From Simiduia curdlanivorans (lineage in GTDB: Bacteria; Pseudomonadota; Gammaproteobacteria; Pseudomonadales; Cellvibrionaceae), in NCBI RefSeq assembly GCF_030409605.1, contig NZ_JAUFQG010000004.1, positions 540,430-604,429 of the forward strand: 64,000 bases of DNA, written 5' to 3'. Of the stretch, positions 3,051 through 57,062 are shown in pieces (within the stretch, counting starts at the first letter, position 1; each line of letters opens with the position of its first letter). The notes under the pieces are model-generated. The model was not told the origin of the DNA. It did no database searches and was given only the letters and a program-made list of their open reading frames with translations. A program made the translations under genes and the position numbers.

Positions 3051-4796
3051 CTAGGATGTAGCCGGTTGCGCCTCATCAGTTCGCCGCGCTAACTCGGGCA
3101 GCTGATAGAAACATACCCTATCTTTGCCTTCATGTTTTGCCTGGTAGAGCGCCGTATCGGCCGCCTCAAACAAAGCGCTTGGGCTATCGAGCGCATCTTC
3201 CGTGCAGCAGGCAACACCTAAGCTAATGGTGACATGCAAACCTTTAATGGGCGACGCCTTCACCAAACAGCGCAAGCGCTCCGCCAGCACACCGGCCTGC
3301 TCCATGCCGGTATTTGGCACCAATACGGCGAACTCTTCGCCACCGTAGCGGCAGGCTAGGGTTGGGCGGCGAACATGTTTGCGCAAAATGCGGCCTAACT
3401 CTTCAATCACCTCATCGCCACTGGTGTGGCCGTGATCGTCATTCACTGCTTTAAAATTATCGATATCGATAACAATCAGCGACAGTGGCTTTTTTGTGCG
3501 CTTGGCCTTGTCAATTTCCCGCGGCAGCACTTCGTCGAAATGACGACGGTTCGCCAGAGCCGTTAAGGCGTCGGAATAGCCGAGCTTTTGCATTTCATTA
3601 ACCCGGGCACTCAAGGCTAAAGATAACAGCACCATTTCCAACAGAGAGCCCATTTGGAAGCTGTTCTGCGTGACAAAATTATGAGGCAAGAAACCGAACT
3701 GTTTGAACATATAGATAAGCACGGATACCAAGAGCGTAGCCCAGGCCACCATGAAATAACGAGCCGGCACAGAGCCGCGCAATAACACTAATGACCCCAG
3801 CAGCAATATACAAAAACACACCAGCACGGTGAGCAGTGAGTAGGCAAAAATTAAATCTTGATAACCCAAAAATGGTGTCACCAACAGTAGGGTCGCCGTC
3901 ACTACTTGCAACACAACAGCGATTCGATCGGTGCGCGGCACCCAGTGCTGGGTCGAACATACCACGCGGGAAAACTTTAACCCGAAGAGCAGTGAAACGC
4001 CGAGTAATAGCAGTAAACTTTGATTGGCAAGCCAGGGGCTATTGGGCCAAATATATTGAAACGCAAAGCCGTTATGTACCGACATATAAAGCCCGTAACT
4101 CACCACATACACCATGTAATAGATGTAGGCGCGATCTTTTACCGCCAAAAACAAAATTAGGTTATAAATAACTAAAACTAAAAAGCCACCGTAATAAGCG
4201 CCAAATAACAGCTGTTCACCGCTAACGCGGCTCAGGGTGTGGCCAGTATCCGCAATGGACAAACCAATGTTCATCGGGCCATCGGATTTAAAGCGGAAGT
4301 AAACAGTCTTATCGCTATTGGCCGGCACAGTTACGGGAAAGAGAAAATCACGCACGCCCACGGCGCGGGCATCAAATACTCGCCTGTCGCCGGTGGAGGT
4401 GGCGCGCCACACCCCAGCTAGGTCTTGATCCCAGAAGTCCACATAATCGATGAGCGGATAATCTTGTCGAATCATCAATGCCGCATCAGTAGTTTTGGGG
4501 TTGTGTAACTTAAGCGACACCCAGTAGGCAGAATGGCTGAAACCAAAATTAGCGGCTGTTCTCGCCAGCGGTTGCAAACGTGTAGCCGACTCCTGCAGCA
4601 GCTGCGGAAACTCGATCTCGGCCGCCTCCTCAATATATAGATTGATATCTTGAGTTAAGTCCGTGGTTGGCATGCTGGCAAATACCAGCACGGCAGAATC
4701 CTCTCGCAGTTGATTCGCCGCTTGTTCAGCGCCGGCTTGGCTCGGCAGCAGCAAAGGGAGAATGCTGATCATCAGGGTTAGAATTATTTTTTTCAT
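3051..4796 (-). CDS. sensor diguanylate cyclase, 7TMR-DISMED2 periplasmic domain + 7TM-DISM + GGDEF
   Basis: The ORF runs to 4997, but Met68 (MKKIILTLMISILPLLLPSQAGA) gives a clean signal peptide, so I place the start at ~4796. After a periplasmic region there are seven hydrophobic segments and then a GGDEF domain with RYGGEEF. Confidence 0.85.
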   Translation of the reverse strand: MKKIILTLMISILPLLLPSQAGAEQAANQLREDSAVLVFASMPTTDLTQDINLYIEEAAEIEFPQLLQESATRLQPLARTAANFGFSHSAYWVSLKLHNPKTTDAALMIRQDYPLIDYVDFWDQDLAGVWRATSTGDRRVFDARAVGVRDFLFPVTVPANSDKTVYFRFKSDGPMNIGLSIADTGHTLSRVSGEQLLFGAYYGGFLVLVIYNLILFLAVKDRAYIYYMVYVVSYGLYMSVHNGFAFQYIWPNSPWLANQSLLLLLGVSLLFGLKFSRVVCSTQHWVPRTDRIAVVLQVVTATLLLVTPFLGYQDLIFAYSLLTVLVCFCILLLGSLVLLRGSVPARYFMVAWATLLVSVLIYMFKQFGFLPHNFVTQNSFQMGSLLEMVLLSLALSARVNEMQKLGYSDALTALANRRHFDEVLPREIDKAKRTKKPLSLIVIDIDNFKAVNDDHGHTSGDEVIEELGRILRKHVRRPTLACRYGGEEFAVLVPNTGMEQAGVLAERLRCLVKASPIKGLHVTISLGVACCTEDALDSPSALFEAADTALYQAKHEGKDRVCFYQLPELARRTDEAQPATS

Positions 4797-5074
4797 TTCA
4801 CAACCTAATTGAGGGCGAACATCTTCATGTGCACAACAGCACAGCCAACCGCACCGAAGATGGAAAACACAAGCAAGTGAGATCAAGGGTGCGAAGGGTG
4901 GCGCACTATTATTTTGTTGATTTAGGCGACATAACGCAACTAAACCCACAATGGCCGAGGTTATTCCAGTAGCAATAACTAAAACGCAATATAACAAGTC
5001 TTGCCAGGTTTCGTGAACTTAGTGCGCAAATATGTTAAAAAGCGCGCTTGGGTGAAAATAATAAGGATCACACA

Positions 5075-6733
5075 GTGACCACTAAGACTTGGGGTAGCCG
5101 ATGCGTAGGTGTATTGGCGTTAGCCGTCTGTATTTCCGCTTGCGACAATCACGATACCAGCCACAACAACAAAGCGCCTAGCACTAACGCTGCAGGCCTT
5201 ACCTTGCTGGCGCAAAATTGGAGCGATCAAGATCGCGAAGTAGCTTGGTTCACCTCCTTCGGTTCTCGGGTGATGCCCTACTCGTGGTTTTTAGCACTGG
5301 AGCAGGCGGCTAACCAGCTACCGTTTAACCAAGTCGCGCACATGGAAAGCTTCGGCTTTTCGATGCCGGGGGCGAGCGAGGCAAACCCGGATAATGTCGC
5401 CATAGGCCTTACCAAAACACCCGAGCGCGATGGCCACGAATGGATCGGGCTGGGCTGCTCTGGCTGCCACTCGGGCCAAGTTCACTATCGAGGCACGCGC
5501 CTACACATAGACGGCGGCGCGGCACTGATCGATTTTCAAGGTTTTGAACAAGCGGCTATCGATGCACTTGCTGCCACCCTCGACGACAGCGAAAAGCTGC
5601 AGCGCTTTGCCGCTAAATTAGGCCTAAGCAATATCGACGACCTGGCCGCCGAGCTTGCTAGCTGGACCGATTCACTGATTGCGCGGCAAACCATTAACCG
5701 CACCGAGAGTGATTATGGCTATGGCCGGCTCGACGCCTTCGGGCAAATTTTTAATGCCGTGGCGGTTGAGTTTCTCGGCATCGACGAAAACCGCCGCGAC
5801 CCGAATGCGCCGGTGAGCTACCCAGTGCTGTGGGATGCCTCACATCTAGATTTAGTGCAGTGGAACGCCTCAGCACCCAATGCAGGGCCTGGCCCTATCG
5901 TCCAAAATGCCACCACGGCGCTCGCGGTTTTCGGCCACATGGATATCGAAAAATCCGGCAACGGCTTTGGCTTTGCCTCCAACGTGGAAGTGGGTAATTT
6001 AGGCGCGATTCAAGATGCCTGGTACCAACTAACCGCACCCCAGTGGCCCGAATCCATCCTTGGCACAATAGACCAAACCTTGGCCGCGCAAGGTCGCGCC
6101 ATTTACGCCGAAAACTGCTTGGCCTGCCACGCACTGTCAGATCGCAATGATCCAAAACGGCGCATCAAGGCCAGCGCCGTCGCCCTCGATGTGGTTGGCA
6201 CAGATCCAGCCATGGCGGAAAATTTTGCCCATGCCACCGCCAAGGCCGGCGCCTTCGCCGGCAAAAAATTGATGTTTATTGCTGGCCCGGTGATTGAAGA
6301 AGAATCACCCACTATTTTACTCGTGGCCCACGCGGCCATGGGCGCCCTGCTCGACAAACCCTTCTCGGCGCTGTGGCAGGGTGTGCTGAGTATGCATTCG
6401 GTGATCGAAGCACCCGTCGACCCGCTGCCGCTCTATTACAAGGCCAGGCCGCTGTCGGGCATTTGGGCCTCGGCCCCTTATCTGCACAACGGTTCGGTCA
6501 TGAGCTTGGCCGATTTATTAGAGCAACCAGCGCAAAGAGCAAGTCGCTTTTTTGTCGGCAGGGTTGAGTTTGATCCCATCAACGTCGGCCTAAGCAGCCA
6601 AGTGCTAGCCCCAAATCAAGTGTCTGAATTGAACACCGAGCTGCACGGCAACAGCAATGCCGGCCACCTTTTTGGCACGGCTCTGGCTAGCTCAGACAAA
6701 CGCGCGCTGCTCGAATATTTGAAAACACTGTAG
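5075..6733 (+). CDS. di-heme c-type cytochrome lipoprotein, CCP/MauG-superfamily-like, unusually long (~550 aa)
   Basis: A GTG at aa 10 of ORF 5048..6733 is preceded by AAGGA. There is a signal peptide with lipobox ISAC. Two CxxCH motifs (CSGCH, CLACH) lie ~215 aa apart. A PYLHNGSV motif near the C-terminus resembles the conserved P-Y-F/M-H-N/D-G motif at the second heme of cytochrome c peroxidase/MauG enzymes. Confidence 0.7.
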   Translation: MTTKTWGSRCVGVLALAVCISACDNHDTSHNNKAPSTNAAGLTLLAQNWSDQDREVAWFTSFGSRVMPYSWFLALEQAANQLPFNQVAHMESFGFSMPGASEANPDNVAIGLTKTPERDGHEWIGLGCSGCHSGQVHYRGTRLHIDGGAALIDFQGFEQAAIDALAATLDDSEKLQRFAAKLGLSNIDDLAAELASWTDSLIARQTINRTESDYGYGRLDAFGQIFNAVAVEFLGIDENRRDPNAPVSYPVLWDASHLDLVQWNASAPNAGPGPIVQNATTALAVFGHMDIEKSGNGFGFASNVEVGNLGAIQDAWYQLTAPQWPESILGTIDQTLAAQGRAIYAENCLACHALSDRNDPKRRIKASAVALDVVGTDPAMAENFAHATAKAGAFAGKKLMFIAGPVIEEESPTILLVAHAAMGALLDKPFSALWQGVLSMHSVIEAPVDPLPLYYKARPLSGIWASAPYLHNGSVMSLADLLEQPAQRASRFFVGRVEFDPINVGLSSQVLAPNQVSELNTELHGNSNAGHLFGTALASSDKRALLEYLKTL

Positions 6734-6855
6734 CGCGCGGTACAGGAAGATTTATCCCGCCGCGGCAAAAATTTTTACTGCGGCACGGGCGTCGCCCGTT
6801 AAAGCAGCAACATTATTCTAACTATCTGATGTCAGCCTTTCGTAAGGATTACGCT

Positions 6856-9138
6856 ATGCTCAACTTTCTGAAAAAACTGCTAACCTCGCGCTGGCTTTGG
6901 CGTGTGATTATGTTGCTGGCAGTGCTCGCAGCGCTGGCCGTTCTGGCCTTCGTGTATTTCGTGCAGAGCAGCAAGGGCATCCAACCGCCGGAAGAGCACA
7001 CAGACAAAACCGTGTATTTAAATCAGAATTGGGGGGTGCAAGAGCGCGACACTTACTACTATTCGCCCCAAGGTACAGCGGTACCCCAAGGCGCCACCTT
7101 GGGCGCAGTGCGCTACGAATGGTTTGTCAATTTAGAGCTGCCGCTGTCTACCGAGCGCTTTGCTAGCCCGAGCAATATGCGCCGGTTTAAATTTTTAGTA
7201 GATCCAGCCCCCACACCGGCCAACCCAGATCACCTGCCCGTGGGCTTCACCAAACACTTCGATCAAAACATAGGCGACACCGTATTAGACATCACCTGCG
7301 CGGCCTGCCACACCGGCGAGCTGCACTACCAAAAAGACGGTGTTAATTACGCGCTGCGGGTCGACGGCGGCCAAGCCATGCACGCCTTCACCGACTTAAA
7401 CCGCGGCACCTTTGGCCCCACATTGATTACCGCGCTGCTGGAAACTTACGTCAACCCGGCTAAATTCAATCGCTTTGCCGATAAGGTATTAGCCGAAGGC
7501 GGCGACCGCGATTTACTCAAGCAACAGCTGGGTAAAAACCTCGGCGCGTTTTTAAGCATCAAACAAAATAACCCGCTCAAACATTTGTACCCCACACGGG
7601 AAGGCTATGGCCGCACAGATGCCCTAGGTCGCATTGCCAACACCCTGTTTGGCGATCACTTAATTGAAAGCAACATGCAGGTATCAGCAGCGCCAGTGAG
7701 CTACCCCTTCCTGTGGAATATTTGGAAATTTAACTGGGTGCAATACAACGGCTCGGTGGCACAACCCTTAGCGCGCAACGTGGGCGAAGCCTTAGGCGTG
7801 GGTGCGCATATTCCCCTGCGCAGCCCCGAGGGCGCGCCACTGCCCGCCGCTGAAATGTTCCGCAGCTCCGTGCGCATTGCCGATATTGAAAAAATCGAAC
7901 TGGCGCTGCAAAAACTTGTTGAACCCGAGTGGCCGAGCGATATTTTCGGCGCCGTTAATCAACCACTAGCCGAACAGGGCGAGACCTTATTTAAACAACA
8001 CTGCGTCGAGTGTCATGGCCCGCACGTGGCGAGCAAAGCGCGTCAGATGCAAGAAGCACCGCTGAAAAAATCTGTACACGATCAGTGGTTGATTGAAGTC
8101 ATCGAGCTAGATCATATTGGCACAGACGCCAATGCGGCACAGGGTTTCGTGGAAAAAACTTACGACTTATCGCCCGCAGGCATTACCAAAGACACCATTC
8201 ACCAAGTGCTCTACCCGCTATTTGAGCGCCGCCTAGCGCGCGATGTGTTGGCGCGCCTACAAACCCTGGCGATAACAGAACAACTAAGTGAGGAAGCGCG
8301 CGCGGCCTTCGCGGCGCTGGCGGCGCAATACCCGCCGGCCGATCATTTAGCCGATGCCGGTTTCGAGCCCTCGCCCTTTCCCGCCATCCTGGCGGCGCTA
8401 AATCAATTCGATTTAAAACCCAGCTACAGCCAAACCGTGGATAGCCAAGCCTATAAACAGCTTAACTGCGGCTTCAAATGCCAAGTGAATGCGCTCTGGT
8501 GGGACATTAATTTTGGCCGCGAGGCCAATACCAAGCTGGTTAGTAGTTTAGATCCCACTAAGCTCACCGAGGGCTTGGGCTTAAATATCATTGGCCTGTT
8601 AATCAAAAACCGCTACTACCAAGACAACAACCTAAGCTACGAACAAATTCAATGCTTGGAAGGTTTCGGCACCTTGGATTTACCGCAGCAGATTGCCGGC
8701 TATAAACCGCGCCCACTGGCTGGCGTTTGGGCCACGCCGCCGTTTCTGCACAACGGCTCCGTGCCCACAATTTATCAAATGCTGATGCCGCCCGAGCAGC
8801 GCGATAAACGCTTCTTCGTCGGCCGCCGCGATTACGACCCAGTGCATTTAGGCTATATCTCTAGCCCGGCGACCGACGCTGAAACCGACGGCCTCTGGTT
8901 CGACACCAGCATTAGCGGCAACCACAATACCGGGCATGGTTTCAGCGCCACACCCGAGCAGTGGGCGGCCTACAAAGGCGACTATAAAAACAACCCGCTG
9001 CCGAAGGGTATTATTGGCCCACTGCTGAGCCACGAGCAGCGCCTCGCATTAATCGAATACCTAAAAATTCATCGCGATAACCCAGCTGGTTATCAATTTG
9101 AGCCGGCGCCCAGCTGCCTCGCGAGCAGCGCTCTGTGA
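6856..9138 (+). CDS. di-heme c-type cytochrome, CCP/MauG-superfamily-like, N-terminal membrane anchor, 760 aa (paralog of the preceding gene)
   Basis: An ATG at aa 10 of ORF 6829 is preceded by AAGGA. One N-terminal transmembrane helix precedes CAACH and CVECH motifs and PFLHNGSV. The C-terminus (LIEYLKIH) matches the LLEYLKTL end of the upstream paralog. Confidence 0.75.
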   Translation: MLNFLKKLLTSRWLWRVIMLLAVLAALAVLAFVYFVQSSKGIQPPEEHTDKTVYLNQNWGVQERDTYYYSPQGTAVPQGATLGAVRYEWFVNLELPLSTERFASPSNMRRFKFLVDPAPTPANPDHLPVGFTKHFDQNIGDTVLDITCAACHTGELHYQKDGVNYALRVDGGQAMHAFTDLNRGTFGPTLITALLETYVNPAKFNRFADKVLAEGGDRDLLKQQLGKNLGAFLSIKQNNPLKHLYPTREGYGRTDALGRIANTLFGDHLIESNMQVSAAPVSYPFLWNIWKFNWVQYNGSVAQPLARNVGEALGVGAHIPLRSPEGAPLPAAEMFRSSVRIADIEKIELALQKLVEPEWPSDIFGAVNQPLAEQGETLFKQHCVECHGPHVASKARQMQEAPLKKSVHDQWLIEVIELDHIGTDANAAQGFVEKTYDLSPAGITKDTIHQVLYPLFERRLARDVLARLQTLAITEQLSEEARAAFAALAAQYPPADHLADAGFEPSPFPAILAALNQFDLKPSYSQTVDSQAYKQLNCGFKCQVNALWWDINFGREANTKLVSSLDPTKLTEGLGLNIIGLLIKNRYYQDNNLSYEQIQCLEGFGTLDLPQQIAGYKPRPLAGVWATPPFLHNGSVPTIYQMLMPPEQRDKRFFVGRRDYDPVHLGYISSPATDAETDGLWFDTSISGNHNTGHGFSATPEQWAAYKGDYKNNPLPKGIIGPLLSHEQRLALIEYLKIHRDNPAGYQFEPAPSCLASSAL

Positions 9139-11105
9139 GCCAAGTAAAAAATTTCCAACAGGTGCGCGAGGCCGAGCAAATTTGGCTAAGCGAACGCCGA
9201 AAGCAGGCGCAGGTTGATCCTGTGCTACCGGAAATTGGCCTAGCCTTTTCCGGTGGCGGCATACGCTCGGCGTGTTTTCATTTGGGCTTTTTGCAGGCGC
9301 TGATCGAGCGCAAAAAACTTCAGCGCGTGGATTATTTATCCACGGTATCGGGCGGCGGTTATATCGGTGCCTGTTTGCAATGGTTGAAACACCGCGCCAG
9401 TTCCAGCGCCAACGACGACTTGTTTGCCCAGCCGGTAAACGACAGCACCGTGTTGAACTGGTTGCGCGCGCACGGCAAGTATTTGGTCGACGGCAAGGGC
9501 ATTAACAACATGACCTTGCTGGCGGCGCTTTTAGCCAGCACGCTGTTTAACCTCGCGGTGGTTTTGCCGCTGTTGCTGCTGTGCGTTTGGCTGTTCGGCT
9601 TTCCACACACGCAACTGTACTGGCCACCGCACTGGCACTTGCCCGGTGCCGACGTGATAGAGGGGCACAGCGGCTATCTACTGGCGCTGCTCATCAGTGC
9701 CGGTTCATTTATCAGTTTCTTGATCGCCGTGCCGCTGATGGCACTTTGGCGTCAGGGCCGCACCCAGCACAACTTCAAACCCCGGCTGTGGATGGGCAGG
9801 CTGCTCAATATCGGCGTCATCGCGGGGCTAATTGGCTTACTCCCCATCGCGGCGCAATTAAGCGATATGCTGTTCGCCTTAGCCGGCTCCGAATCCCTGT
9901 CCCAAATTGGCAAACATCTAAACTATTTGCTGCCCTTCATCGGCGGCGTGTTGACCATTTCGCGCGCAACCTTTAAACCCGGTTTGGCCCTCGCTGGCCT
10001 CACGCTCATGCTCTACGGGCTGGCCGCTTTCGCCTACCATTTAGTTTTTCACACAGGGTTAATTGCACAGCCCGGTTACTGGGCCTTCTTGGCATTGGCC
10101 ATCGCGCTGCTAATGTTGGCCAGCGTTAACCGCACCTCGATGCACAGCTACTACCTATCGCGCCTGTGTAACGCATTTTTTATGTGCACAAAAGCCGACG
10201 ACAATCACGGCCAAGATCTAGCCCTAGCCACATTAACCCCGGCCACGGGCGCACCCCTGCCACTGATCAACACCACCATGAGCACGGCCAGCTCGAGCAA
10301 CCGGCTCTGGCGCGAGCGCATGGGTTTGAGCTTTACCCTGTCGCCGCTGTTTTGTGGCGCGCCACCTACCGGCTTTGCCAGCACCTCGGCGTTTCAATCT
10401 GGCCGCTTGACCCTAGGCGAGAGCATGACCACCTCGGGCGCGGCGGTAGACCCAGGCACCGCGCAAACCGCCAACGGCGCGCTGAGTTTTTTAATGGCGC
10501 TACTAAATTTTCGCCTCGGCTTCTGGACCAAGGCGCCGAGAGCGGCTGATACCTTTTTTTCCCATATGCCCTACTGGCTCATCATGCGCGAAATGTTTGG
10601 CTTCGGCTTAAGCGAAAGCCATAACAATATTCACTTAAGCGACGGCGGCCACTTTGAAAACCTCGGCGTCTACGAGCTCATCCGCCGCGAGCTGTCGATT
10701 ATTGTGGCCGGTGATGCGGGAGCAGACCCGAGCGTCAATTTCTCCGATTTAGGCTTGCTGATTCAGCGCGCCTACGCCGACTTCGATTGCCATATCGCCA
10801 TCAATACTGCGCAGCTTAGCGAGGTAACAGACGGCATACACGCCAGCTGTTTCGCCGTGGGCAATATCACCTACAGCTCCGGCAAAACCGGTAAGCTCTA
10901 CTATGTGAAAAGCCTACTCACCGCAGCCGCTGGCACCCAACTGGCGAGCTTTGCCTACACAGATCCAAGCTTCCCCAATGACAGCACGGCAAATCAATTC
11001 TATGATGAAGAGCACTTCGATGCCTATCGAGCCTTGGGAAAGCTCAATATGCTTTCGCTGCTAGAGCAACACGAAGCCGATATTTTTCCCGAGCCACTTA
11101 ACTAA
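9135..11105 (+). CDS. patatin-like phospholipase with a polytopic membrane insertion between catalytic Ser and Asp
   Basis: A GTG start overlaps the TGA stop of the upstream gene (GTGA). It has the oxyanion motif FSGGGIRS, the serine motif TVSGGG and, ~430 aa later, DGGHFENLGV (the patatin/cPLA2 catalytic Asp motif). Residues ~130-330 form multiple hydrophobic helices. Confidence 0.8.
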   Translation: MSQVKNFQQVREAEQIWLSERRKQAQVDPVLPEIGLAFSGGGIRSACFHLGFLQALIERKKLQRVDYLSTVSGGGYIGACLQWLKHRASSSANDDLFAQPVNDSTVLNWLRAHGKYLVDGKGINNMTLLAALLASTLFNLAVVLPLLLLCVWLFGFPHTQLYWPPHWHLPGADVIEGHSGYLLALLISAGSFISFLIAVPLMALWRQGRTQHNFKPRLWMGRLLNIGVIAGLIGLLPIAAQLSDMLFALAGSESLSQIGKHLNYLLPFIGGVLTISRATFKPGLALAGLTLMLYGLAAFAYHLVFHTGLIAQPGYWAFLALAIALLMLASVNRTSMHSYYLSRLCNAFFMCTKADDNHGQDLALATLTPATGAPLPLINTTMSTASSSNRLWRERMGLSFTLSPLFCGAPPTGFASTSAFQSGRLTLGESMTTSGAAVDPGTAQTANGALSFLMALLNFRLGFWTKAPRAADTFFSHMPYWLIMREMFGFGLSESHNNIHLSDGGHFENLGVYELIRRELSIIVAGDAGADPSVNFSDLGLLIQRAYADFDCHIAINTAQLSEVTDGIHASCFAVGNITYSSGKTGKLYYVKSLLTAAAGTQLASFAYTDPSFPNDSTANQFYDEEHFDAYRALGKLNMLSLLEQHEADIFPEPLN

Positions 11106-11120
11106 CCCACACCGCCGAGA

Positions 11121-11471
11121 ATGATTATGAAAACGATAAAATTACTAGCCATTGGCGCCAGCTTATTTACCAGCGTTACAGCGATGGCGGCCGACAACTA
11201 CCTGTGCACCAACGCCGGTAGCGAGCGCAGCGTGAAAGTGATTTACCAAGCCCCTGGTGTTGCCGTGCCCTGCGAAGTGCAATACACCAAAGATGGCATC
11301 AGCCAAACCCTGTGGACGGCGGAAAACCTAACCGGTTATTGCGAAGAGAAAGCCCAAGCCTTTGCCGACAAACTCAGTGGCTGGGGTTGGCAGTGCAACC
11401 AGCAGGGCGACGGAATGATGGACGCCAGCGACGAAGACATGACCCCAGCTGAAGGCGCCGACGGCAACTAA
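11121..11471 (+). CDS. small secreted Cys/Trp-containing protein, function unknown
   Basis: 116 aa starting 15 bp after the patatin stop. It has a signal peptide (LLAIGASLFTSVTAMA), four Cys, a SGWGWQCNQQ segment and an acidic tail. Confidence 0.65.
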   Translation: MIMKTIKLLAIGASLFTSVTAMAADNYLCTNAGSERSVKVIYQAPGVAVPCEVQYTKDGISQTLWTAENLTGYCEEKAQAFADKLSGWGWQCNQQGDGMMDASDEDMTPAEGADGN

Positions 11472-11643: not shown

Positions 11644-12249
11644 CTAAACCTTGTTTGCCTTTTTCACCCGCACGCGATTATTCACATCGCGACTCGCGCG
11701 TATGAGCCCATTATCCAGAAGGCTCGGGCCAGACTTGGCCAAGCGATCGTATAAAACAACGTTAACGCTGGCGGCCAAGTTCATCGAGCCCACGGTGGGT
11801 ACATACACTACTGCATGGGCGCGATCGATTATGGCCTGCTTTAAGGTGCCGTCCTCAGGGCCAAATAAATACAGCGCCTGCGCTGGGTGCTGAAACGCGG
11901 GCAAGGGAACAGCGCCCTCGACTAGATCCACACACACAACGGCCATGGTGCTGGGAATGGCCGCAAAAAAATCATCAATATGCTCAAGTGGAATATTTTC
12001 GCCAGCGCGCTGGGTATCGGTATGAAATTTAGCCGCTTTGGCGTAGCGATTACCCGAGTAAAAAACCGCGTCCGCTTGGTAGCAACCGGCAGCGCGCATA
12101 ACGGCACCGACATTGCTGGGGCTCTTCGGGTTGGTTAAACCGATAGCAACGGTGGGCGCATTGATTGCAATGGGTGCAGAAGATGCGCCCTGATCACAGC
12201 TTGTCTTGTCGTTCATAGGGTTTTCAATCAAATGAGGCTTAACAGCCAT
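11644..12249 (-). CDS. SpoU/TrmH-family RNA 2'-O-methyltransferase
   Basis: ~200 aa with SPOUT motifs (LTNPKSPSNVGAVMRAAG, LYLFGPEDGTL, VPTVGSMNLAASVNVVLY). The start may instead be Met12 (~12216). Confidence 0.75.
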   Translation of the reverse strand: MAVKPHLIENPMNDKTSCDQGASSAPIAINAPTVAIGLTNPKSPSNVGAVMRAAGCYQADAVFYSGNRYAKAAKFHTDTQRAGENIPLEHIDDFFAAIPSTMAVVCVDLVEGAVPLPAFQHPAQALYLFGPEDGTLKQAIIDRAHAVVYVPTVGSMNLAASVNVVLYDRLAKSGPSLLDNGLIRASRDVNNRVRVKKANKV

Positions 12250-12945: not shown

Positions 12946-13036
12946 TAATTCTCGCGACTATGGTGTTGGTTACGCTATCATAAGCGCCATTTTTAGGGTG
13001 CTACAACGCAGCATCAACCAGACAGGGAGCTTAGTC

Positions 13037-14488
13037 TTGATCATCATCCCAACGGAAAAGCGCTTCGACTGGCGCTACGCACCCACGGTCATGTTCGGCA
13101 TCGTGCTGATCAACGTGCTAGTGTTCTTTTTCTATCAATCCGGCGATGACAATAAGATTGAGCAAGCCCTCGAGATCTATCAGCAGCAGGGCTTTTTAGA
13201 GCTTGAATGGCCAGAGTACAAAAAATATCTGACCACAAAAAGCACCGAGCAGGACGATGAACAACTCACCTACGTAGAGGAACTTTTCGAACAGGAAGAT
13301 TTCGGCAATTTAGCCGTAGAAATAGTTTTCGATACGGCCTTTTACGACCACCTGTTCAAAGACCCATACAATCTAATTGGCTACCAAAAAGTCGAAGTCT
13401 GGCTCGACCAGAGAGCAAAAATCAACGCCAGCATTCTCAACCTCAGCTTTATTGCCTACGGCTTAGTTCCCGCCGACCTCTCGATCACCACCTTGTTTAC
13501 CACCCAATTTTTGCACGGCGACACCATGCACCTATTGGGCAATATGTTCTTCTTAGTGATTTGCGGCTTTGCGGTAGAAGCGGCTATCGGCCATTGGCGT
13601 TTTCTGGCTTTCTATTTAATTTCCGGTGTATTCGCCAGCCTAGCCCATGCGCTGCTAGACCTCTCCAGCACCCAACCCTTGGTTGGCGCGTCTGGCGCTA
13701 TATCCGGCGTGATGGCGATGTATTTAGCGGTATTTAAATTTCGAAAAATCGAATTTTTCTATTGGCTATTTATTTTTGTCGGCTACATCAGAGCACCGGC
13801 CTTGATTATTCTGCCCATTTACATCGGTAAAGAGCTAGTGAGCTTTTATACCGATACCGATTCAAACGTGGCCGTTATGGCGCACGCCGGCGGCTTTGTC
13901 ATGGGCGCCCTGCTGATGTTCGTCAGCCAGTGGCTTAGCCCGAAAAGTATCGATGTTGAGTACATTGAAACCGACCAAAGCATAGACCCCTATCAAGAAG
14001 CGCTGGCGCTGGTGTATACCGACATCGAAAACTTTCGCTTTGACTCGGCCTATAAAAATACCCAAGCCTTGATTGCCCAGCACGGCGAAAACTTTAGGAA
14101 CCTTGCGCTCCTTGCCCAGCTAGCTCAACTCAGAAGCCCAGCCGATCAGCAGGCCGCCATGCTTGGCCTATTGAAGGTGGAGACGCAAGAGCCTATCGAA
14201 TTAGAGCGCCAAGCCCAATTACTCATCGACTCAGCCCAGCCAGCCGATTATTTATCCGAACAGGAACTGTGCAAGCTCGGTAGCCGCCTGTGCCGGTTAG
14301 AAAACCTCAAACCTGCCGAAGCGCTATTTGACATAGTGCAGAATAGATACGGCCACCTAGCAGCCAGCCAAAACAATCTCGCCCTGCTGGCAAAAAAATT
14401 GTCTATTGCCTTTGCCAAAACCAATAATGCCCTGAAGTCCAAGCACTACCATGGCCTTGCCAGCAAGCTTGTAGGGAGCACACTGTAA
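13037..14488 (+). CDS. rhomboid-family intramembrane serine protease with C-terminal helical (TPR-like) extension
   Basis: Catalytic GASGAISG and AHAGGF motifs lie in a 6-TM core. The ORF opens at 12998 (GTG). A TTG at ~13037 with GGGAG 7 nt upstream or an ATG at ~13091 are plausible starts. Confidence 0.75.
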   Translation: MIIIPTEKRFDWRYAPTVMFGIVLINVLVFFFYQSGDDNKIEQALEIYQQQGFLELEWPEYKKYLTTKSTEQDDEQLTYVEELFEQEDFGNLAVEIVFDTAFYDHLFKDPYNLIGYQKVEVWLDQRAKINASILNLSFIAYGLVPADLSITTLFTTQFLHGDTMHLLGNMFFLVICGFAVEAAIGHWRFLAFYLISGVFASLAHALLDLSSTQPLVGASGAISGVMAMYLAVFKFRKIEFFYWLFIFVGYIRAPALIILPIYIGKELVSFYTDTDSNVAVMAHAGGFVMGALLMFVSQWLSPKSIDVEYIETDQSIDPYQEALALVYTDIENFRFDSAYKNTQALIAQHGENFRNLALLAQLAQLRSPADQQAAMLGLLKVETQEPIELERQAQLLIDSAQPADYLSEQELCKLGSRLCRLENLKPAEALFDIVQNRYGHLAASQNNLALLAKKLSIAFAKTNNALKSKHYHGLASKLVGSTL

Positions 14489-16062
14489 TGGAATATTGCC
14501 ACTTTCACCCGCTCTCATCGGCCACCTTTTATTGCGACCACTGCCTTACCAACCTGTGCGACCACTGCATAGACGACACTCAACAGCGCGGTGGCGAGCG
14601 CTGTATTAGCTGCGCAAAACCGCTCATTAGCTTGGGCGCAGCGCACAGCGCCGAGCCATTCTGGCGTAAACTAAAAGACGCTTTTCACTACCCACTCTAC
14701 GGTCAGTCGTTAACGTTAATCATTGGCGTCGCCGTGATGACCAGCGTGGTGGCCTATATTCCCTTTGCCATCGTCTTCTATCTCATGGCCGTGGGCGCTT
14801 TAATGCGCTATAGCTTTGCCTGCCTAGAAAATACCGCCAATGGCAAAATGACGGCGCCCGATATCACCGAGGCTTACGAAGGTGGCATACTGCTGATATT
14901 TCAATTAATCGGCATTGTCGTCATTATGACGGCAGCTGTTTTTGGCGTTAACGAATTTTTAGGCGAAGGCCTTGCCCGCCTACTCGCCGTATTTTGTCTA
15001 TTGAGTTTTCCCGCGATTATTATTTTATTCGCCTTGAACAGAAATATGTTCGACGCCATTAATCCTCTCAGTATCACTCAGCTGATACTGTCAGTAGGCC
15101 TCTCCTACGGCGTGCTATTGGGTTTAATCTTGGTAATGAGCGCATCCGTTAGCGTTATTCACGAACTCATCGGTGCAGAATTTTCCTTCATCAATGCCTT
15201 ACTACAAGGCATCGTTTCCAACTTCTATACCGTTGTGACCTTTCATATCATGGGCTATATGATCTTCCAATATCAGGCCGAGCTAGGCTTCGTTGCCCGA
15301 GAAGATCACGGTGGTATCGCCAAAAGCAAAACTGAGCAAGACTTGCACAATGCCAAAATAGACATAGCACTTAAACTAGGGCAATACGGCCGAGTGGTAG
15401 ATCTGTTCGGCGAAGCCAATCGGAAATTCCCCAATGACTACAATTACTATGTGCGCTGCTTCGACCTTCTCTGCGCTATCAAACAAACCGATCGCTTAGA
15501 AAAGTTTTTACCTTTCTACTTTGATTTTTTACCCAAGGCTCAACGCGGCGATCAAATTTACCCGAGCTTTAAACGCGCCCTCGGCCTCATACCCAACTAC
15601 CTACCCGCCACCGCCAAGCTGCGCCACCAGCTGGCGGAGCAATGCCAATTCAAAGGCGACCCCAAGTCAGCGCTGCGCCTGCTCAACGGCATTCACAAAC
15701 ACTTCCCCACCTACCCAAAACTAACGGCCGCCTACGAAGTGATGGAGCGCGCCTTGGGCGACCTACCCAACATGGAAAAGCAGCGCGCGCAATGTAAAAC
15801 ATTCATTGAAAACTTAAAACAAAAGGCCGCAGAAGCAGAAGCGGCAAAACAGGCGGCGCAAGCCATACTAAAACCCAAGAACAAGCCCATGCTCGACAAG
15901 TCGGCTCTGCGGCCGAATAAAGACAACACGCCACAGGAAGCCCAAACACAGCCGCTGCGCAAGAGCGAGCAACAAAAGCTACGGGCACAGCAATTAGCGG
16001 AGAGAAATGCTAAGGGAGAGGCAGAGGGCAAAGACTTGCCACCGATTGAGTTTAAGCCTTAG
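14488..16062 (+). CDS. membrane protein with N-terminal B-box-type zinc finger, polytopic middle and Lys/Gln-rich C-terminus
   Basis: The ATG overlaps the rhomboid stop (TAATG). CHFHP..YCDHCLTNLCDHC..CISC is a Cys/His zinc-binding pattern. Eight or more hydrophobic helices follow, and the C-terminal ~90 aa are low-complexity K/A/Q/E-rich. Confidence 0.65.
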   Translation: MEYCHFHPLSSATFYCDHCLTNLCDHCIDDTQQRGGERCISCAKPLISLGAAHSAEPFWRKLKDAFHYPLYGQSLTLIIGVAVMTSVVAYIPFAIVFYLMAVGALMRYSFACLENTANGKMTAPDITEAYEGGILLIFQLIGIVVIMTAAVFGVNEFLGEGLARLLAVFCLLSFPAIIILFALNRNMFDAINPLSITQLILSVGLSYGVLLGLILVMSASVSVIHELIGAEFSFINALLQGIVSNFYTVVTFHIMGYMIFQYQAELGFVAREDHGGIAKSKTEQDLHNAKIDIALKLGQYGRVVDLFGEANRKFPNDYNYYVRCFDLLCAIKQTDRLEKFLPFYFDFLPKAQRGDQIYPSFKRALGLIPNYLPATAKLRHQLAEQCQFKGDPKSALRLLNGIHKHFPTYPKLTAAYEVMERALGDLPNMEKQRAQCKTFIENLKQKAAEAEAAKQAAQAILKPKNKPMLDKSALRPNKDNTPQEAQTQPLRKSEQQKLRAQQLAERNAKGEAEGKDLPPIEFKP

Positions 16063-16948: not shown

Positions 16949-16994
16949 AGAATCTTAACGCCAATGTTATGCGGAATTATTTTTGGATAAAATT

Positions 16995-17786
16995 ATGATT
17001 AAATTAGTGCTAGTTTTAATTCTAGCTGTACAAATTTTAACGGTTCTTGTAGGAAAAGAAGAAAGTGACTCGCCCACAAGTTACGATAGTGAATTAAATG
17101 CAAAGCAACTGCGAGAAAAACTTGTTAAATCGTGCAGCAAAAAAAATGAAATTTATGCATTCTGTACTTGTTTTCGGGAAAATCTTGATTTAGTGACAGA
17201 TGATGACCTGACTAAATACCGAGATCGAAAAAGGGTTTTAGAGGCTGAGGCGATGAAAGCGAAGGTATCAGGTGATATAGTTAAGCTAGATGTAATTACC
17301 ACTGACATCAGTGAAGGATTGATTGATAACAAGATAAGTAAAAAATGCATGCCACCGCTTTTATTGGAGGGCGAGGAGTATGAGAAAAATTTTAATAAAG
17401 GAATCTATCACTACGCAAAAAAGGATTACAAAAAAGCAATAGAGTATTGGTTGCCATACGCTGAAGCTGGCAGCGGGCCCGCAATGGCAAACCTAGCTGC
17501 GCTCTACAATAGAGAAATAGATGGACAGATTGATCTACTAAATTTATACCATTGGAGTTTTAAGTCAGGTCTTAATGGAGATTCACAGGCGCAATTTAAT
17601 TTGGCTGTAATGTTTTTAAACGGCGAGACGGGAAGCAAGGATCTGATAAAGAGTTATGTATGGGCTGAGAAGGCGGCGCAAGGTGGTCACGACACAGCGC
17701 AAAAGCTTAAGGGTGACCTTGATCGTTATCTATCCAATGATCAGATCGTTGAGGCACAAAAGTACTCAGCAGAGATATTTCAATAG
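16995..17786 (+). CDS. Sel1-like repeat (SLR/TPR-like) protein with signal peptide
   Basis: ATG at aa 5 of ORF 16983. Sel1 repeat signatures: AEAGSGPAMANLAALYN, GDSQAQFNLAVMFLNGETG, AEKAAQGGHDTAQKL. Confidence 0.7.
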   Translation: MIKLVLVLILAVQILTVLVGKEESDSPTSYDSELNAKQLREKLVKSCSKKNEIYAFCTCFRENLDLVTDDDLTKYRDRKRVLEAEAMKAKVSGDIVKLDVITTDISEGLIDNKISKKCMPPLLLEGEEYEKNFNKGIYHYAKKDYKKAIEYWLPYAEAGSGPAMANLAALYNREIDGQIDLLNLYHWSFKSGLNGDSQAQFNLAVMFLNGETGSKDLIKSYVWAEKAAQGGHDTAQKLKGDLDRYLSNDQIVEAQKYSAEIFQ

Positions 17787-25718: not shown

Positions 25719-28700
25719 TTATTCTTTATGTTCATCGTTCTTTTTCAGAGACCGCTTATTACCCGCCGCCAAGGCGCGCAGCTGATGTGATACATCCTGC
25801 ATCTTGTCGTGGGTTTTCAAATCTATTTCTAGTTTTTTGTCCATGCTGCGCACCAGCGGGAAAATACTGTTTTCGATAGTATCGGCCAAGGCCGTTAACA
25901 TGCGATCGATACCAGGAACCGGCTGATTAATCACCTCCACTTTTGGCGCCAACTTTTCTAAGGATTTTGCGATACCCAGAATTGCTAATACTAGAGGTTC
26001 GCGCGCCGACTTCTCTGTTCTAGGCTTGGCCTGAGCCGTTACCATGGCTTCGCGCAAGGATTGAACGCTGGCCACCATATCAACCAATTGCGCTACAATT
26101 TTGCCGCCGGCATCGGCATCGTCGCCACCCATGGCTTTATTGCGCATGAAATCTTTCTTGATCGCCTGCCAGCGCTCCGCCTGCAGCTCCGTCATGTTGC
26201 CGCGCAATTCGGCCAATTTTAATAAGTTGGCCTCGGCACCGGTGGTGAGCAACTGGGCCTCACCTAAATAGTGATCGGCTATCATCTGCATCAGCTCGGC
26301 ATCGTTCATCACGGCAGAAATTTTCTCCGTCATTTTATTCATATTGCGGTAGCTACCCTGCAACTTGAACGGTGGCTCGGTGCGGTATTTGTCATCTTGC
26401 GCGGCGGAGATAATGTATTGCTGGTTAATTTTTAATACCACATCGCGCACCACCATCATTTTCTTCAAAACGCCGGTGATCTCACCAATTTCAGAACTGC
26501 TATAGGCATGGCTTAAATCTGTTGTGGCAATACTCTCGCCTTGCGCCATTTTCACCAGCTTATAAACATCGGCCATTTCCCGTGTTGCCAGCGGCGCTAA
26601 TACCGGGTTTGAGGTGAGCGAGTTTTCGATATAACTCAGCGCAAATTGCTCGTCCATACCGCCGAGAATATCGCCCAAGTTATAGATATCGGCTCGGTTA
26701 GCGAGCATATCCGGAATTTTAAATGCCTCACCCGACTCAGTGTAGGGGTTACCCGCCATCACTACGCAAAACTTCTTACCGCGCATATCGTAGGTTTTAG
26801 TCTGCTTGCGCCATACGCCTTCGATGCGCCGTGTGCCGTCGCACAAGGAAATAAATTTCTGCAAAAACTCTGGGTCTGTGTGTTGAATATCATCGAGATA
26901 CAACATCACGTTATTACCCATCTCTAAACCCAGGTTTAGTTTCACCAATTCCTGTCGCGCCGTGGCATTGGGCGCTTGCTCTGGGTCGAGTGACAGCACG
27001 TTATGGCCGAGCGACGGGCAGTTGATTTTCATAAAAATCAAACCCAGCCGATTTGCCACATACTCCATTAAGGTGGTTTTACCGTAACCCGGCGGCGAAA
27101 TCATCATCAGCAAACCCATGAGATCGGTTCGCTTAGTTTCACCAACGGTACCCATTTGCTTGGCGAGGTTGTCGCCAATTAAAGGCAGATAGGATTCATT
27201 AATGAGCCGGTTTCGAACAAAGGAGCTCAGCGGCCGCGCTTTAAATTCATGTAGCTTTAAGCCCTTGCGCTCGCGCTCAACGATAGCCTGACGCACCTTG
27301 TGGTACTGATGATAACCGGCCACCACCACGCGCCGATGGTGCGCCATGCGCAACAGAAAACTGTCTATCTCTAGACTCAAACGGCCTTGATCGAGTAGCG
27401 GGTGATCACCCAACAGTCCCTCAACGATCAATTGTAAGTCGGCCTCGGTATCGCGCCGACGTACATTTTTAGCCGCCAGCATGGCTGCAGCCTCGGGAAT
27501 AAAATGGCGCGCCTTATCACTTTTCTGATGTTCGGTCAGTGCATCGAGCCAGACGCTAATGACGCGAAGCTTCTCACCGGGGCGTTGGTCTAAATTTTCT
27601 AACACCGACTGAAATCTTGCCCACACCACGTCGTCCATGGCACTTCGCAAGCCTGCCTCTAATGCGCGCGCATACTTGCTGGATATAAACGCAAATTGAT
27701 CTCGGGCCAATTCAGCCACCAAATACTGAGCCGCGCGCTCGGTATTGTGGCCACTGCTATCAACGCCCTGCGCCTCAACCCAAAGCGACATGGCAGCGTG
27801 AACCTCCTGCTCTAAAAGCGCTATCGCTTTACCGCTGGCGAACAAGGTATTCAGTAGGGCCGCCGATTGTGCCCGTTGTTGCCACTGCTTTACCTTTGAC
27901 TGGCTTAAGCGGGTATCGTCAGCCACATCGACAAAGCTTGCCCAAAAAACCTGCGCCAAGGCGCGGCACTGCGGGTCGAAGCGCAAGAGATCTGCGGCAT
28001 CTAGCGCCGGTAAGAGCGCCTGCAGAATTTTGGTTGCATCGCTATCGTGTATGCCTTTTTCGTAACCCTCTTTGTAGCGCGGCGCGGCAAAAGCTTTGAC
28101 CAAGTTAGCCAGCTTCGCCTCATCTAACAAAGCCTCTTGCAGAATGCCTAAACTCAGCGCCTCGCTCCCCGCACGCGCCGCCTCGAGCAAACTGTAGGCG
28201 AGGTATTCACCTCGGTACACCTGCTCCGTCTCGGACTCAATATTCAACTGCCAGTAATCACTGAGTGCGTTCAGCTCGGCATCGTCTATTGGCTCGTAGT
28301 AATCCGTGCCCAAGAGATGAATATTGAGTTTATTATTTCGCGGAATAATGGTCAGGTCTAACTCCTGGGTATTGACCGAAAAACGGTGCCGCGGGCCCAA
28401 TTTTATAACACTGCCACCCGCTTCAAAGATGTCGCTTTTATCGCGCAGCGAACGCAGCGCCTGTTCTTTTACCGCCTTAAAGCGCGCATCCACATCATCG
28501 GCTTTGACGGCGCTATTGAGCTGGCGCAAGCGCTCGGAAAATTCCCGCACTTTTTGCACCAAGGCATCGGAGGCAAAGTAGGTGTTTAGCTCGTCTTTAT
28601 CGGTGAACTTTAGGGTTCGCTTTTCGATGCTCGATAACACTCGACTGGCCGCGTCTACAACCGACTGTGCCTTTTGCTGCTGCTCATCCAATAACTTCTG

Positions 28701-56157: not shown

Positions 56158-56175
56158 TGGGCCGTCCTCTCTTCT

Positions 56176-57042
56176 TTAGCCGCCGGCGTTGCCGGTGGCG
56201 ATACGCATGTAGGCTTGAATCTCATCGCCGCCTACGCGCTTCAATTTAGGGTGATTCCAGTCTGTGATCTCGCCCAGCCCGACAACTAAAACGCCGTTTG
56301 GCTTTAACCTTTCCACCAAGAGATTGAGAATTTCTCTACGCCGCCAACGGCGAAAATAAATTAATAAGTTCTGGCAAAAAATCACATCCATGGGCACGGC
56401 CGGCATCTTACTGATCTCCAGCACATTGCCATGTGTAAAACACACACGATCTCGTATTTTATCGACCACCTGCAGGTTATTTCCCGCGGCGGTGAAGTAT
56501 CTTGCGCGCTCTTGTTGGGTCGCTAATTCGGCCCGCCTCGCCGGATATAAACCCAATCTCGCCTTTTGTAGCGAGGGCAGGCTAATGTCCGTTGCGGTAA
56601 CCCCAAAATAGGGCTCTAGCGCCCCCAGCTCAAAACAGTCGTTGGTCACCATAGCCAAGGTATAGGGCTCTTCGCCGGTGGCGCAACCTACGCTCCAAAT
56701 GTCAAAGCTACCACTGAGCGACTGATTATCGATGCGCGATTGGACTAAACGGCGAACGTATTCGATAGACGGACGATGGCGAAAAAAGCTGGTCTCTTTG
56801 ACTACTAATCGATCGACCAGCACCGACCACTCAACAATGCCCTGCAGCCCATCAATAACCTGACTGAGGTAATCTCGGTAGTCCGCACAATCCAACTCGC
56901 GCATGCGACTGGCAATCTGGGTCTGCAAAAAGGCACGCTGATGCGGCGCAACCTGAATACCAGTGCGATCTTCCAGCAATTTACTCCATTGCTGAAACTC
57001 CGTATCTGACAATTCGGGCAACGCCCGCAACGACCACACCAC
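56176..57042 (-). CDS. pilK: chemoreceptor methyltransferase PilK (CheR-like)
   Basis: 288 aa, CheR-type SAM-dependent MTase (VWSVGCATGEEPYTLAM). Confidence 0.85.
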   Translation of the reverse strand: MVWSLRALPELSDTEFQQWSKLLEDRTGIQVAPHQRAFLQTQIASRMRELDCADYRDYLSQVIDGLQGIVEWSVLVDRLVVKETSFFRHRPSIEYVRRLVQSRIDNQSLSGSFDIWSVGCATGEEPYTLAMVTNDCFELGALEPYFGVTATDISLPSLQKARLGLYPARRAELATQQERARYFTAAGNNLQVVDKIRDRVCFTHGNVLEISKMPAVPMDVIFCQNLLIYFRRWRRREILNLLVERLKPNGVLVVGLGEITDWNHPKLKRVGGDEIQAYMRIATGNAGG

Positions 57043-57062
57043 GCTGCTAAGTCCCGCCTAAC

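Follow-up and report, generated by a model that had tools for sequence, protein, structure and literature searches.

The di-haem and lipase locus of Simiduia curdlanivorans

The DNA analysed here is a 64,000-nucleotide (nt) stretch of the Simiduia curdlanivorans genome (Cellvibrionaceae; contig NZ_JAUFQG010000004.1, positions 540,430 to 604,429), referred to as the window; coordinates without a locus prefix are positions in it. Near its start lie genes for two large di-haem cytochromes c (A and B), a patatin-type lipase split by a membrane insertion (C) and a small secreted protein (D), with a gene for a diguanylate cyclase, the type of enzyme that makes cyclic di-GMP (c-di-GMP), running divergently from A (Table 1). 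A first-pass annotation made from the sequence had described the four tightly linked plus-strand genes at 5075-11471, and all four open reading frames (ORFs) are as it described them. Its gene spacings need one correction. The overlap and the 15-nt gap are borne out, but the first gap, given as 123 bp, is 122 nt, so that A/B, B/C and C/D are separated by 122 nt, a 4-nt GTGA overlap and 15 nt. Within the GTGA the start codon of C overlaps the stop codon of B, and B and C are translationally coupled. Because the SpoU methylase gene that follows is convergent, the operon ends with D. What that annotation missed is the conserved partner on the opposite strand, the divergent diguanylate cyclase.

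Table 1. Genes and intergenic region of the locus (positions in the window)
Feature	Position	Strand	Description
7TMR-DISM diguanylate cyclase	3051-4796	-	divergent from A; signal peptide, DISMED2, 7 transmembrane (TM) helices, GGDEF
Cyclase/A divergent intergenic region	4797-5074		278 bp; promoters and regulatory sites presumed
A	5075-6733	+	552-aa lipoprotein, RoxA-family di-haem cytochrome c (NF040606); GTG start, AAGGA Shine-Dalgarno 8 nt upstream
B	6856-9138	+	760-aa RoxA-family di-haem cytochrome c, N-terminal membrane anchor; AAGGA 9 nt upstream
C	9135-11105	+	656-aa cPLA2-like patatin Ser/Asp lipase, catalytic domain split by membrane insertion
D	11121-11471	+	116-aa secreted protein, four invariant Cys, without Pfam match
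SpoU methylase gene	11644-12249	convergent to D	next gene after D

The A protein is 100% identical to an NCBI protein of S. curdlanivorans. Longer alternative starts exist for A and B (6829 for B) and lack a Shine-Dalgarno sequence, whereas the chosen starts have good ones. Between the cyclase gene and A a promoter scan returned weak sigma-70-like matches that are no commoner than in shuffled sequence, and the match counts of the promoter and terminator scans as a whole resemble those of shuffled sequence. No c-di-GMP riboswitch or other Rfam RNA was found near the operon, where the Rfam search gave chance matches to microRNA models only.

Two di-haem proteins of the RoxA type and a membrane-split lipase

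Exactly two CxxCH motifs are present in A (CSGCH at 128, CLACH at 348), together with PYLHNGSV at 468-475 and a C-terminal NAGH at 531. B likewise has exactly two (CAACH at 148, CVECH at 383), with PFLHNGSV at 629-636 and a C-terminal His motif at 694. The annotation's motif reading of two CxxCH and a P-[YF]-L-H-N-G-S-V in each protein is thereby confirmed, as are the paralogy of A and B (29-37% identity) and the description of one as a lipoprotein and the other as membrane-anchored. A has a lipobox, ISAC, in which Cys23 is followed by Asp and is invariant in 42 A homologues; B has a single N-terminal hydrophobic anchor that is kept across 12 orthologues. The Cys and His that bind haem, the HNGS histidine and the C-terminal His do not vary in either of these two sets, and the mean column identity of the B set, whose haem motifs are all invariant, is 65%.

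Profile comparison places both proteins, far beyond chance, in the family NF040606 ('di-heme-cytochrome C peroxidase', 524 positions; cutoff 150 bits), A with 518 bits over profile positions 1-524 and B with 474.8 bits over positions 1-523 plus an insertion. The nearest named families after NF040606 are RoxA, RoxB and RoxC, whose equivalog models score 33-64 bits against A and B, in a short motif region only, where their cutoffs are 900-1000. From Pfam, A and B gave a 39-residue RoxA-like_Cyt-c motif (PF21419) and generic cytochrome c matches only, and neither matched CCP_MauG. Given the end-to-end match to NF040606, the weak Rox equivalog scores and the missing CCP_MauG match, these proteins do not appear to be oversized bacterial cytochrome c peroxidases (BCCPs), and the description of over-sized CCP/MauG-like enzymes has to be revised: the length of A is normal for NF040606, and B has this scaffold too, extended by an N-terminal anchor and by ~180 inserted residues. 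The insertion (residues ~435-610 of B) contains a conserved pair, Cys538/Cys542, and matched no Pfam family. A fatty-acid cis-trans isomerase (Cti) was considered for B and rejected, no Pfam family beyond PF21419 and the generic cytochrome c models having been matched. Proteins of the A/B type are numerous, with at least 3,160 clusters at E<=0.001.

RoxA is the nearest structural relative of A and B. Its structure (4b2n) is the sole strong relative found for either, at an identity of ~16-20%, and in a test of the overall fold both proteins are RoxA-like and clearly nearer to RoxA than to the CCP/MauG core. The C-terminal GN.N.GH motif of A and B aligns with the C-terminal motif of RoxA, whose His641 is listed as a haem-binding residue in the study of oleate-diol synthase (PMC4496055). 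By sequence and predicted fold, then, A and B belong to the CCP/MauG superfamily and specifically to its RoxA-type branch. They differ from classical CCP and from MauG/MbnH in having no CCP_MauG match and ~200-400 extra residues arranged as in RoxA, and the module differs from MauG/MbnH also in having no conserved protein substrate. BCCP and MauG use Met or Tyr as a sixth haem ligand; in A and B the C-terminal His probably takes that place, going by the alignment with RoxA.

Protein C matches the Pfam family Patatin (PF01734) at 45 bits (cutoff 27.7). Its GGGIRS oxyanion loop, Ser72 (in [ST]-V-S-G-G-G, SVSGGG in C) and Asp503 (in D-G-G) are invariant among 24 homologues, down to 40% identity, and in the nucleophile motif [ST]-V-S-G-G the first Gly of GxSxG is replaced. 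Between Ser72 and Asp503 lies a membrane insertion of about six helices at residues 125-334, placed at 125-155, 179-206, 215-250, 254-276, 282-306 and 313-334 in a confident AF2 model (pLDDT 82.6); the lipase is split as the annotation proposed. Lys and Arg are concentrated in those loops that the prediction puts on the cytoplasmic side, the loops in between having neither, and no signal peptide is present in C, so that by the positive-inside rule the catalytic domain should face the cytoplasm. The lipase domain of C and the predicted periplasmic A and B would then be partners on opposite faces of one membrane. In the 24-homologue alignment the first periplasmic loop of C has an invariant Trp163-Pro164 and His178-x-Gly180. 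All catalytic and haem residues of A, B and C are invariant in these alignments, which supports their identities as enzymes.

The best folds for C are human cPLA2 alpha (1cjy) and GIVD cPLA2 (5iz5/5ixc), with E of ~4e-6 to 1e-4 and a probability of 1.0, and the structural matches to VipD, PlpD and ExoU are far weaker. C resembles ExoU, VipD, PlpD, CapV and CapE in its Ser/Asp dyad and glycine-rich oxyanion loop; it differs from the bacterial patatin-like phospholipases in that its structural matches to them are much weaker than those to cPLA2, and in that it has no PADLOC match. To our knowledge none of those five proteins has a polytopic helical membrane insertion inside its catalytic domain. 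The insertion of C matched no Pfam family, and a literature search found no paper on such a split patatin. Six helices inserted within a cPLA2-like catalytic domain are an unusual protein architecture, worth structural study. PADLOC models gave zero matches at E<=0.01 to five proteins of the module region, and a reading as an anti-phage system of the cyclic-oligonucleotide-based type (CBASS-like), with a patatin effector of the CapV/CapE type, was dropped on that result.

Conservation of the gene neighbourhood and its cyclase

The cyclase encoded divergently from A matches 7TMR-DISMED2 (7.6e-29), 7TMR-DISM_7TM (1.6e-51) and GGDEF (4.3e-44) in Pfam. It consists of a signal peptide, a periplasmic 7TMR-DISMED2 domain, seven TM helices and a cytoplasmic GGDEF domain, whose GGEEF motif is intact and starts at residue 485. 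Its I-site, expected five residues upstream of that motif, is without the canonical RxxD and reads RRPT, with Thr in place of Asp (sequence RRPTLACRYGGEEF).

Neighbourhoods were compared in locus scans that took the best 80 loci each, mostly from metagenome-assembled genomes (MAGs) or metagenome contigs; the fractions below describe this sample and are not phylogenetically corrected. Using the patatin as query against one genome per species, and counting as orthologous a full-length patatin of ~35% identity or more, a B orthologue (52-63% identity) lies directly upstream of the patatin in 14/14 judgeable loci, ending at the patatin start or within a few tens of bases of it. These loci come from Aliikangiella, Pleionea, Marinobacter, Dokdonella, Arenimonas, Steroidobacteraceae and other MAGs, and the same order of B before patatin is found in Marinobacterium, Permianibacter and S. 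aestuariiviva. Using a B alignment against metagenome contigs, a sample unbiased regarding C and limited to B orthologues of >=51% identity with room downstream, C is directly downstream of B in 20 of the 25 loci. Throughout the loci compared, B and C are coupled translationally or lie within ~90 nt of each other. Three A homologues were looked up independently, and all three lie in the module. The placement of A varies: it may directly precede B, follow C in convergent orientation or lie divergently next to the cyclase gene, and in many loci of the Steroidobacteraceae type it is not within 10 kb.

The most constant neighbour is the cyclase. Full-length orthologues of 39-51% identity adjoin the di-haem and patatin genes in nearly all judgeable loci (L002-6, L008-10, L012, L014-16, L021, L024, L026, L035, L085-L101, L103, L110, L129, L131, L141, L144, L166 and L167). 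Their position changes, from upstream divergent to downstream to after A, and they are kept despite the shuffled gene order. The conserved fourth member of the module is this 7TMR-DISM cyclase and not D. The linkage has outlasted the shuffling of gene order in several gammaproteobacterial orders, which argues strongly for functional coupling. The region encodes an inner-membrane module of three to four genes that is conserved in Gammaproteobacteria.

Naive clustering of the neighbouring ORFs was made noisy by spurious overlapping ORFs in GC-rich contigs, and beyond A/B, C and the cyclase it gave only lineage-specific synteny. A gene for a 496-aa rhomboid with a long C-terminal extension abuts one for a 524-aa membrane/TPR protein with a Cys-rich N-terminus (12998-16062, plus strand); the pair also stands beside the module in a Rudaea MAG (L166:14782-17635) and in no other searched locus. 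These two genes were rejected as module members since they recur only in that MAG. A literature search on patatin combined with RoxA-like proteins, CCP or diguanylate cyclase, or with FadCcp, found no paper describing the gene combination, in keeping with the annotation's remark that it was not a described system. The component families (NF040606, Patatin and 7TMR-DISM) are already catalogued.

Protein D is small, secreted and Cys-bearing, as had been noted, with a signal peptide, four invariant Cys and an SGWGWQC segment. The annotation had raised the possibility that it is the substrate of a MauG-type reaction, in which A and/or B would oxidise or cross-link its Trp or Cys. In S. aestuariiviva (L085) the order cyclase, A, B, C, D is kept, and by tblastn no D was found in module loci outside Simiduia, the window and L085 being the only ones. 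A D-family profile (138 members and D) likewise matched nothing in the ~160 other loci, among them dozens with B-C. The family itself is large: a word-indexed search gave five homologues and an exhaustive one 858 clusters at E<=1e-3, some members being fused to DPBB/RlpA-like or pilin domains and one lying in an unrelated context. A claim that D is confined to Simiduia was dropped in view of the 858-cluster family and narrowed to the linkage between D and the module, which occurs in Simiduia only. The consensus core of the family (D at 11121-11471, P0246-P0394) reads CT..G.ER...V.Y...G..VPCEVQYTK.G..Q.LW.A.N..GYCE..A..F..K..GWGW.C, and in one homologue of the Simiduia clade the first Trp of GWGW is Met. 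D is a genus-level addition in Simiduia and not a conserved partner of the module. The substrate model thus failed the co-conservation test. D is absent, even by profile search, from every other locus with A, B and C, its family occurs in unrelated contexts and fusions, the first GWGW Trp is not invariant, and neither of the conserved partners, a lipase and a cyclase, is a protein substrate; comparative genomics brings the model close to refutation, and we give it scarcely any credence.

More distant B-like proteins (36-46% identity) are mostly without a patatin and are still NF040606 members at 484-493 bits (493 for the di-haem protein of L138, 484 for that of L032). In these sister clades a secreted catalase-related 'mini-catalase' of ~330-390 aa is encoded immediately downstream of the di-haem gene in 29 of 39 judgeable loci (L106, L109, L113, L120, L122-L125, L133, L135-L138 and L150-L164; for example L138:8249-9424), and in 13 of these loci an SMP-30/gluconolactonase-like (SGL-family) gene lies upstream. 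The mini-catalase has a distal His motif, R-D-x-H-A-K, and a proximal R...Y, and among solved structures it is closest to 3e4w and to the allene oxide synthase (AOS) domain 1u5u from coral. We take 3e4w to be the 33-kDa catalase-related protein of M. avium paratuberculosis that reacts with organic hydroperoxides. AOS and hydroperoxide lyase (HPL) enzymes of the catalase-related kind transform the fatty-acid hydroperoxides that a dioxygenase fused to them produces (PMC5617202). The pairing of di-haem protein and mini-catalase looks like a second conserved operon type, apparently undescribed. In L138 and L106 a TM-patatin, an SGL-family protein, a di-haem protein and a mini-catalase are encoded together beside a convergent GGDEF gene, and in a Verrucomicrobia MAG (L032:637-6281) genes for a di-haem protein, a cytochrome P450 and a TM-split patatin stand in a row. 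L032 is an independent, cross-phylum version of the lipase and haem-oxygenase theme, and these three loci tie the patatin-type and mini-catalase/P450-type neighbourhoods together. A lipase followed by a dioxygenase and a P450 or catalase-type hydroperoxide-transforming enzyme is the layout of classic oxylipin pathways.

Membrane-lipid oxygenation as a candidate function

The reading that we prefer, with a probability of roughly 0.45, is that the module oxygenates membrane lipids and that this activity is coupled to c-di-GMP signalling. C would release an unsaturated acyl chain from an inner-membrane phospholipid. The chain would reach the periplasmic leaflet either unaided, in the form of the protonated fatty acid, or by way of the membrane insertion of C, a possible route in that its periplasmic loop bears the invariant Trp-Pro and His-x-Gly. 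B would oxygenate the C=C bond, probably to a hydroperoxide, by the chemistry of RoxA and RoxB on polyisoprene and of PA2077 on oleate. A may then act on the product, in the way that the hydroperoxide isomerase PA2078 does; in the sister clades the adjacent position holds a mini-catalase or P450. Either the oxidised lipid or the pathway's state may be coupled to c-di-GMP via the adjacent cyclase, and the direction could equally be reversed, with c-di-GMP controlling C. The annotation had offered a role in peroxidised-lipid turnover as its alternative, and it is in this direction that the evidence leans.

The nearest functional precedent for such a module would be the oleate-diol synthase of P. 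aeruginosa, in which PA2077 (UniProt Q9I238), an oleate 10S-dioxygenase, and PA2078 (UniProt Q9I237), a 7,10-diol synthase, are periplasmic tandem paralogues ('FadCcp' subfamily) (PMC4496055) whose oxylipins control motility and biofilm formation (PMC4496055, PMC5155153). Both were modelled on RoxA and have the same motif layout, and among the characterised bacterial Ccp-family proteins discussed in that study the RoxA-type branch consists of RoxA, PA2077 and PA2078 (PMC4496055). Like A and B, the FadCcp proteins are tandem paralogous large di-haem cytochromes c with two CxxCH, a P-Y-[FL]-H-N-G-S-V and a C-terminal His, are exported to the periplasm and are kin to RoxA rather than to classical CCP. 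Compared for layout only, the motif positions are 128/348/468-475/531 in A, 148/383/629-636/694 in B and 130/375/553/611 in PA2077 (PMC4496055 Table 1). PA2077 and PA2078 are soluble or loosely membrane-associated proteins of 634 and 624 aa with 43% mutual identity, whereas A and B have 552 and 760 aa, are ~30% identical and are membrane-tethered. Host lipids have been proposed as one source of fatty acids for PA2077/78, and their oxylipins have been linked to quorum-sensing-type cell-to-cell signalling (PMC5155153, PMC6377657). PA2077/78 are without a dedicated lipase or cyclase; the Simiduia module, in contrast, has its own phospholipase and diguanylate cyclase. RoxA also differs: it is described as extracellular and acts on polyisoprene (PMC4877957), whereas A and B have membrane anchors and a phospholipase as partner.

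The kinship to RoxA could instead point to catabolism of exogenous unsaturated polymers or lipids, with A and B cleaving C=C bonds in isoprenoids, carotenoids or polyunsaturated lipids and C de-esterifying them. Simiduia species are marine polymer degraders, and the three Rox families are the nearest named ones after NF040606. This role is nevertheless highly improbable in our judgement. The Rox equivalog scores fall far short of their cutoffs, A and B are tethered to the membrane where RoxA is described as extracellular (PMC4877957), the lipase is predicted to have its active site in the cytoplasm, and the neighbourhood has no conserved genes for uptake or beta-oxidation.

The main rival to membrane-lipid oxygenation uses the same parts for the removal of lipid hydroperoxides. 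A and B would then be peroxidases that reduce lipid hydroperoxides at the periplasmic face with electrons from periplasmic cytochromes, C would excise damaged acyl chains, and the cyclase would report oxidative stress of the envelope. Eukaryotes offer a likeness in phospholipase A2 (PLA2) working with glutathione peroxidase, and a mini-catalase next door suits the removal of hydroperoxides no less than their transformation into signals. We nonetheless regard repair or detoxification as unlikely. The nearest characterised relatives, RoxA and PA2077/78, are oxygenases or isomerases and not peroxidases (PMC4496055), CCP_MauG is unmatched in Pfam, and no redox-partner gene is conserved in the block; scavenging is also a poorer fit than product formation to the lasting cyclase link and to the P450 gene of L032.

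Beyond the double fit of the mini-catalase, several further points weigh against membrane-lipid oxygenation. Every functional step in it rests on homology or gene context, and A and B are only ~16-20% identical to RoxA. With the lipase and the haem enzymes predicted on opposite sides of the membrane, substrate hand-over would need a putative transfer step. Five B loci (L090, L092, L093, L099 and L103) have the cyclase and no adjacent lipase, the genes downstream of B in L099 and L103 being unrelated, and no 7TMR-DISM cyclase is present in the loci of Marinobacterium lacunae, Marinobacter sp. SS21 and Gallaecimonas kandeliae. From the five loci without C and the three lineages without a cyclase it follows that no single partner of the module is obligatory. 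In the G. kandeliae locus, where the cyclase is missing, a PilZNR/PilZ gene, for a c-di-GMP receptor, is found ~1 kb upstream of A (L168:6303-6956), possibly an alternative link to c-di-GMP.

That the cyclase-B pair is kept in the five loci without C, and that linkage to the cyclase is the most constant feature, would also suit a haem-based envelope sensor. B, with or without A, would sense redox state, O2, H2O2 or NO and modulate the cyclase via DISMED2, and C would be an output or regulated effector, for example in membrane remodelling under c-di-GMP control. The lipase and GGDEF domains are both placed in the cytoplasm, and the PilZ-domain gene of the cyclase-less Gallaecimonas can be added in favour. 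Such a sensor still seems quite improbable: B is a 760-aa enzyme-like protein with invariant catalytic-type motifs and a RoxA-like fold, members of the same family pair with a mini-catalase or P450 without any cyclase in the sister clades, and no c-di-GMP-binding domain was detected in C by family-profile searches.

An extension of membrane-lipid oxygenation, bolder and rather unlikely as a whole, is that the module is a self-contained eicosanoid-like signalling cascade found in many Gammaproteobacteria. An integral-membrane cPLA2-like lipase would free the cell's own unsaturated acyl chains, membrane-tethered RoxA-family enzymes would form periplasmic oxylipins from them, and the 7TMR-DISM cyclase would read these oxylipins to set c-di-GMP. 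The whole of NF040606, including the members that in other phyla have a mini-catalase or P450 as partner, would then be a large bacterial family of lipid dioxygenases that has gone unrecognised.

In its overall logic the module resembles the eicosanoid and oxylipin cascades of eukaryotes, where cPLA2 feeds a haem dioxygenase and AOS, HPL or P450 enzymes and a receptor follow. The likeness lies in the cPLA2-like fold of C, the haem oxygenases, the catalase-related or P450 second-step enzymes of the sister loci and a membrane receptor acting through a second messenger. The differences are that the oxygenases of the module are c-type di-haem proteins and not cyclooxygenase (COX) or lipoxygenase (LOX), that its lipase, with the six inserted helices, is integral to the membrane, and that its receptor is a diguanylate cyclase. 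The parallel is one of functional analogy only, not of pathway homology.

Other features of the window lie apart from the module. On the minus strand at 25719-30995 is a gene for a giant protein of 1758 aa, whose domains are DUF3686 ('ATPase involved in DNA repair'), DUF7902 and AAA, adjoined at 31053-32948 (minus strand) by a 631-aa ORF without a Pfam match; the two may form an uncharacterised NTPase system. Also on the minus strand, the stretch 49969-59216 encodes a 2062-aa ChpA-like hybrid CheA (multiple Hpt, HATPase, CheW and receiver domains) and a methyl-accepting chemotaxis protein (MCP, 57063-59216), which looks like a Pil-Chp chemosensory cluster of type IV pili. Between 16000 and 18000 the GC content is 0.407, against ~0.51-0.55 elsewhere, with small ORFs and a Sel1-repeat protein at 16983-17786, and this stretch may have been acquired horizontally.

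Bacterial oxylipin biology has so far concerned mostly PA2077/PA2078 of P. aeruginosa and a few lipoxygenases. The module described here could be, with slightly less than an even chance, a bacterial di-haem lipid-oxygenase system, in a variant not described in the literature found. Were this so, the di-haem enzymes of the RoxA type would make up a widespread lipid-oxygenase family, in line with the thousands of clusters found, and C would be the first bacterial phospholipase dedicated to feeding such oxygenases. The signals of 7TMR-DISM receptors are mostly unknown; the ligand class of at least one group of them would be identified, and oxidation of membrane lipids would be tied directly to c-di-GMP. 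If the module serves the repair of lipid peroxides instead, it would still define a new envelope stress pathway.

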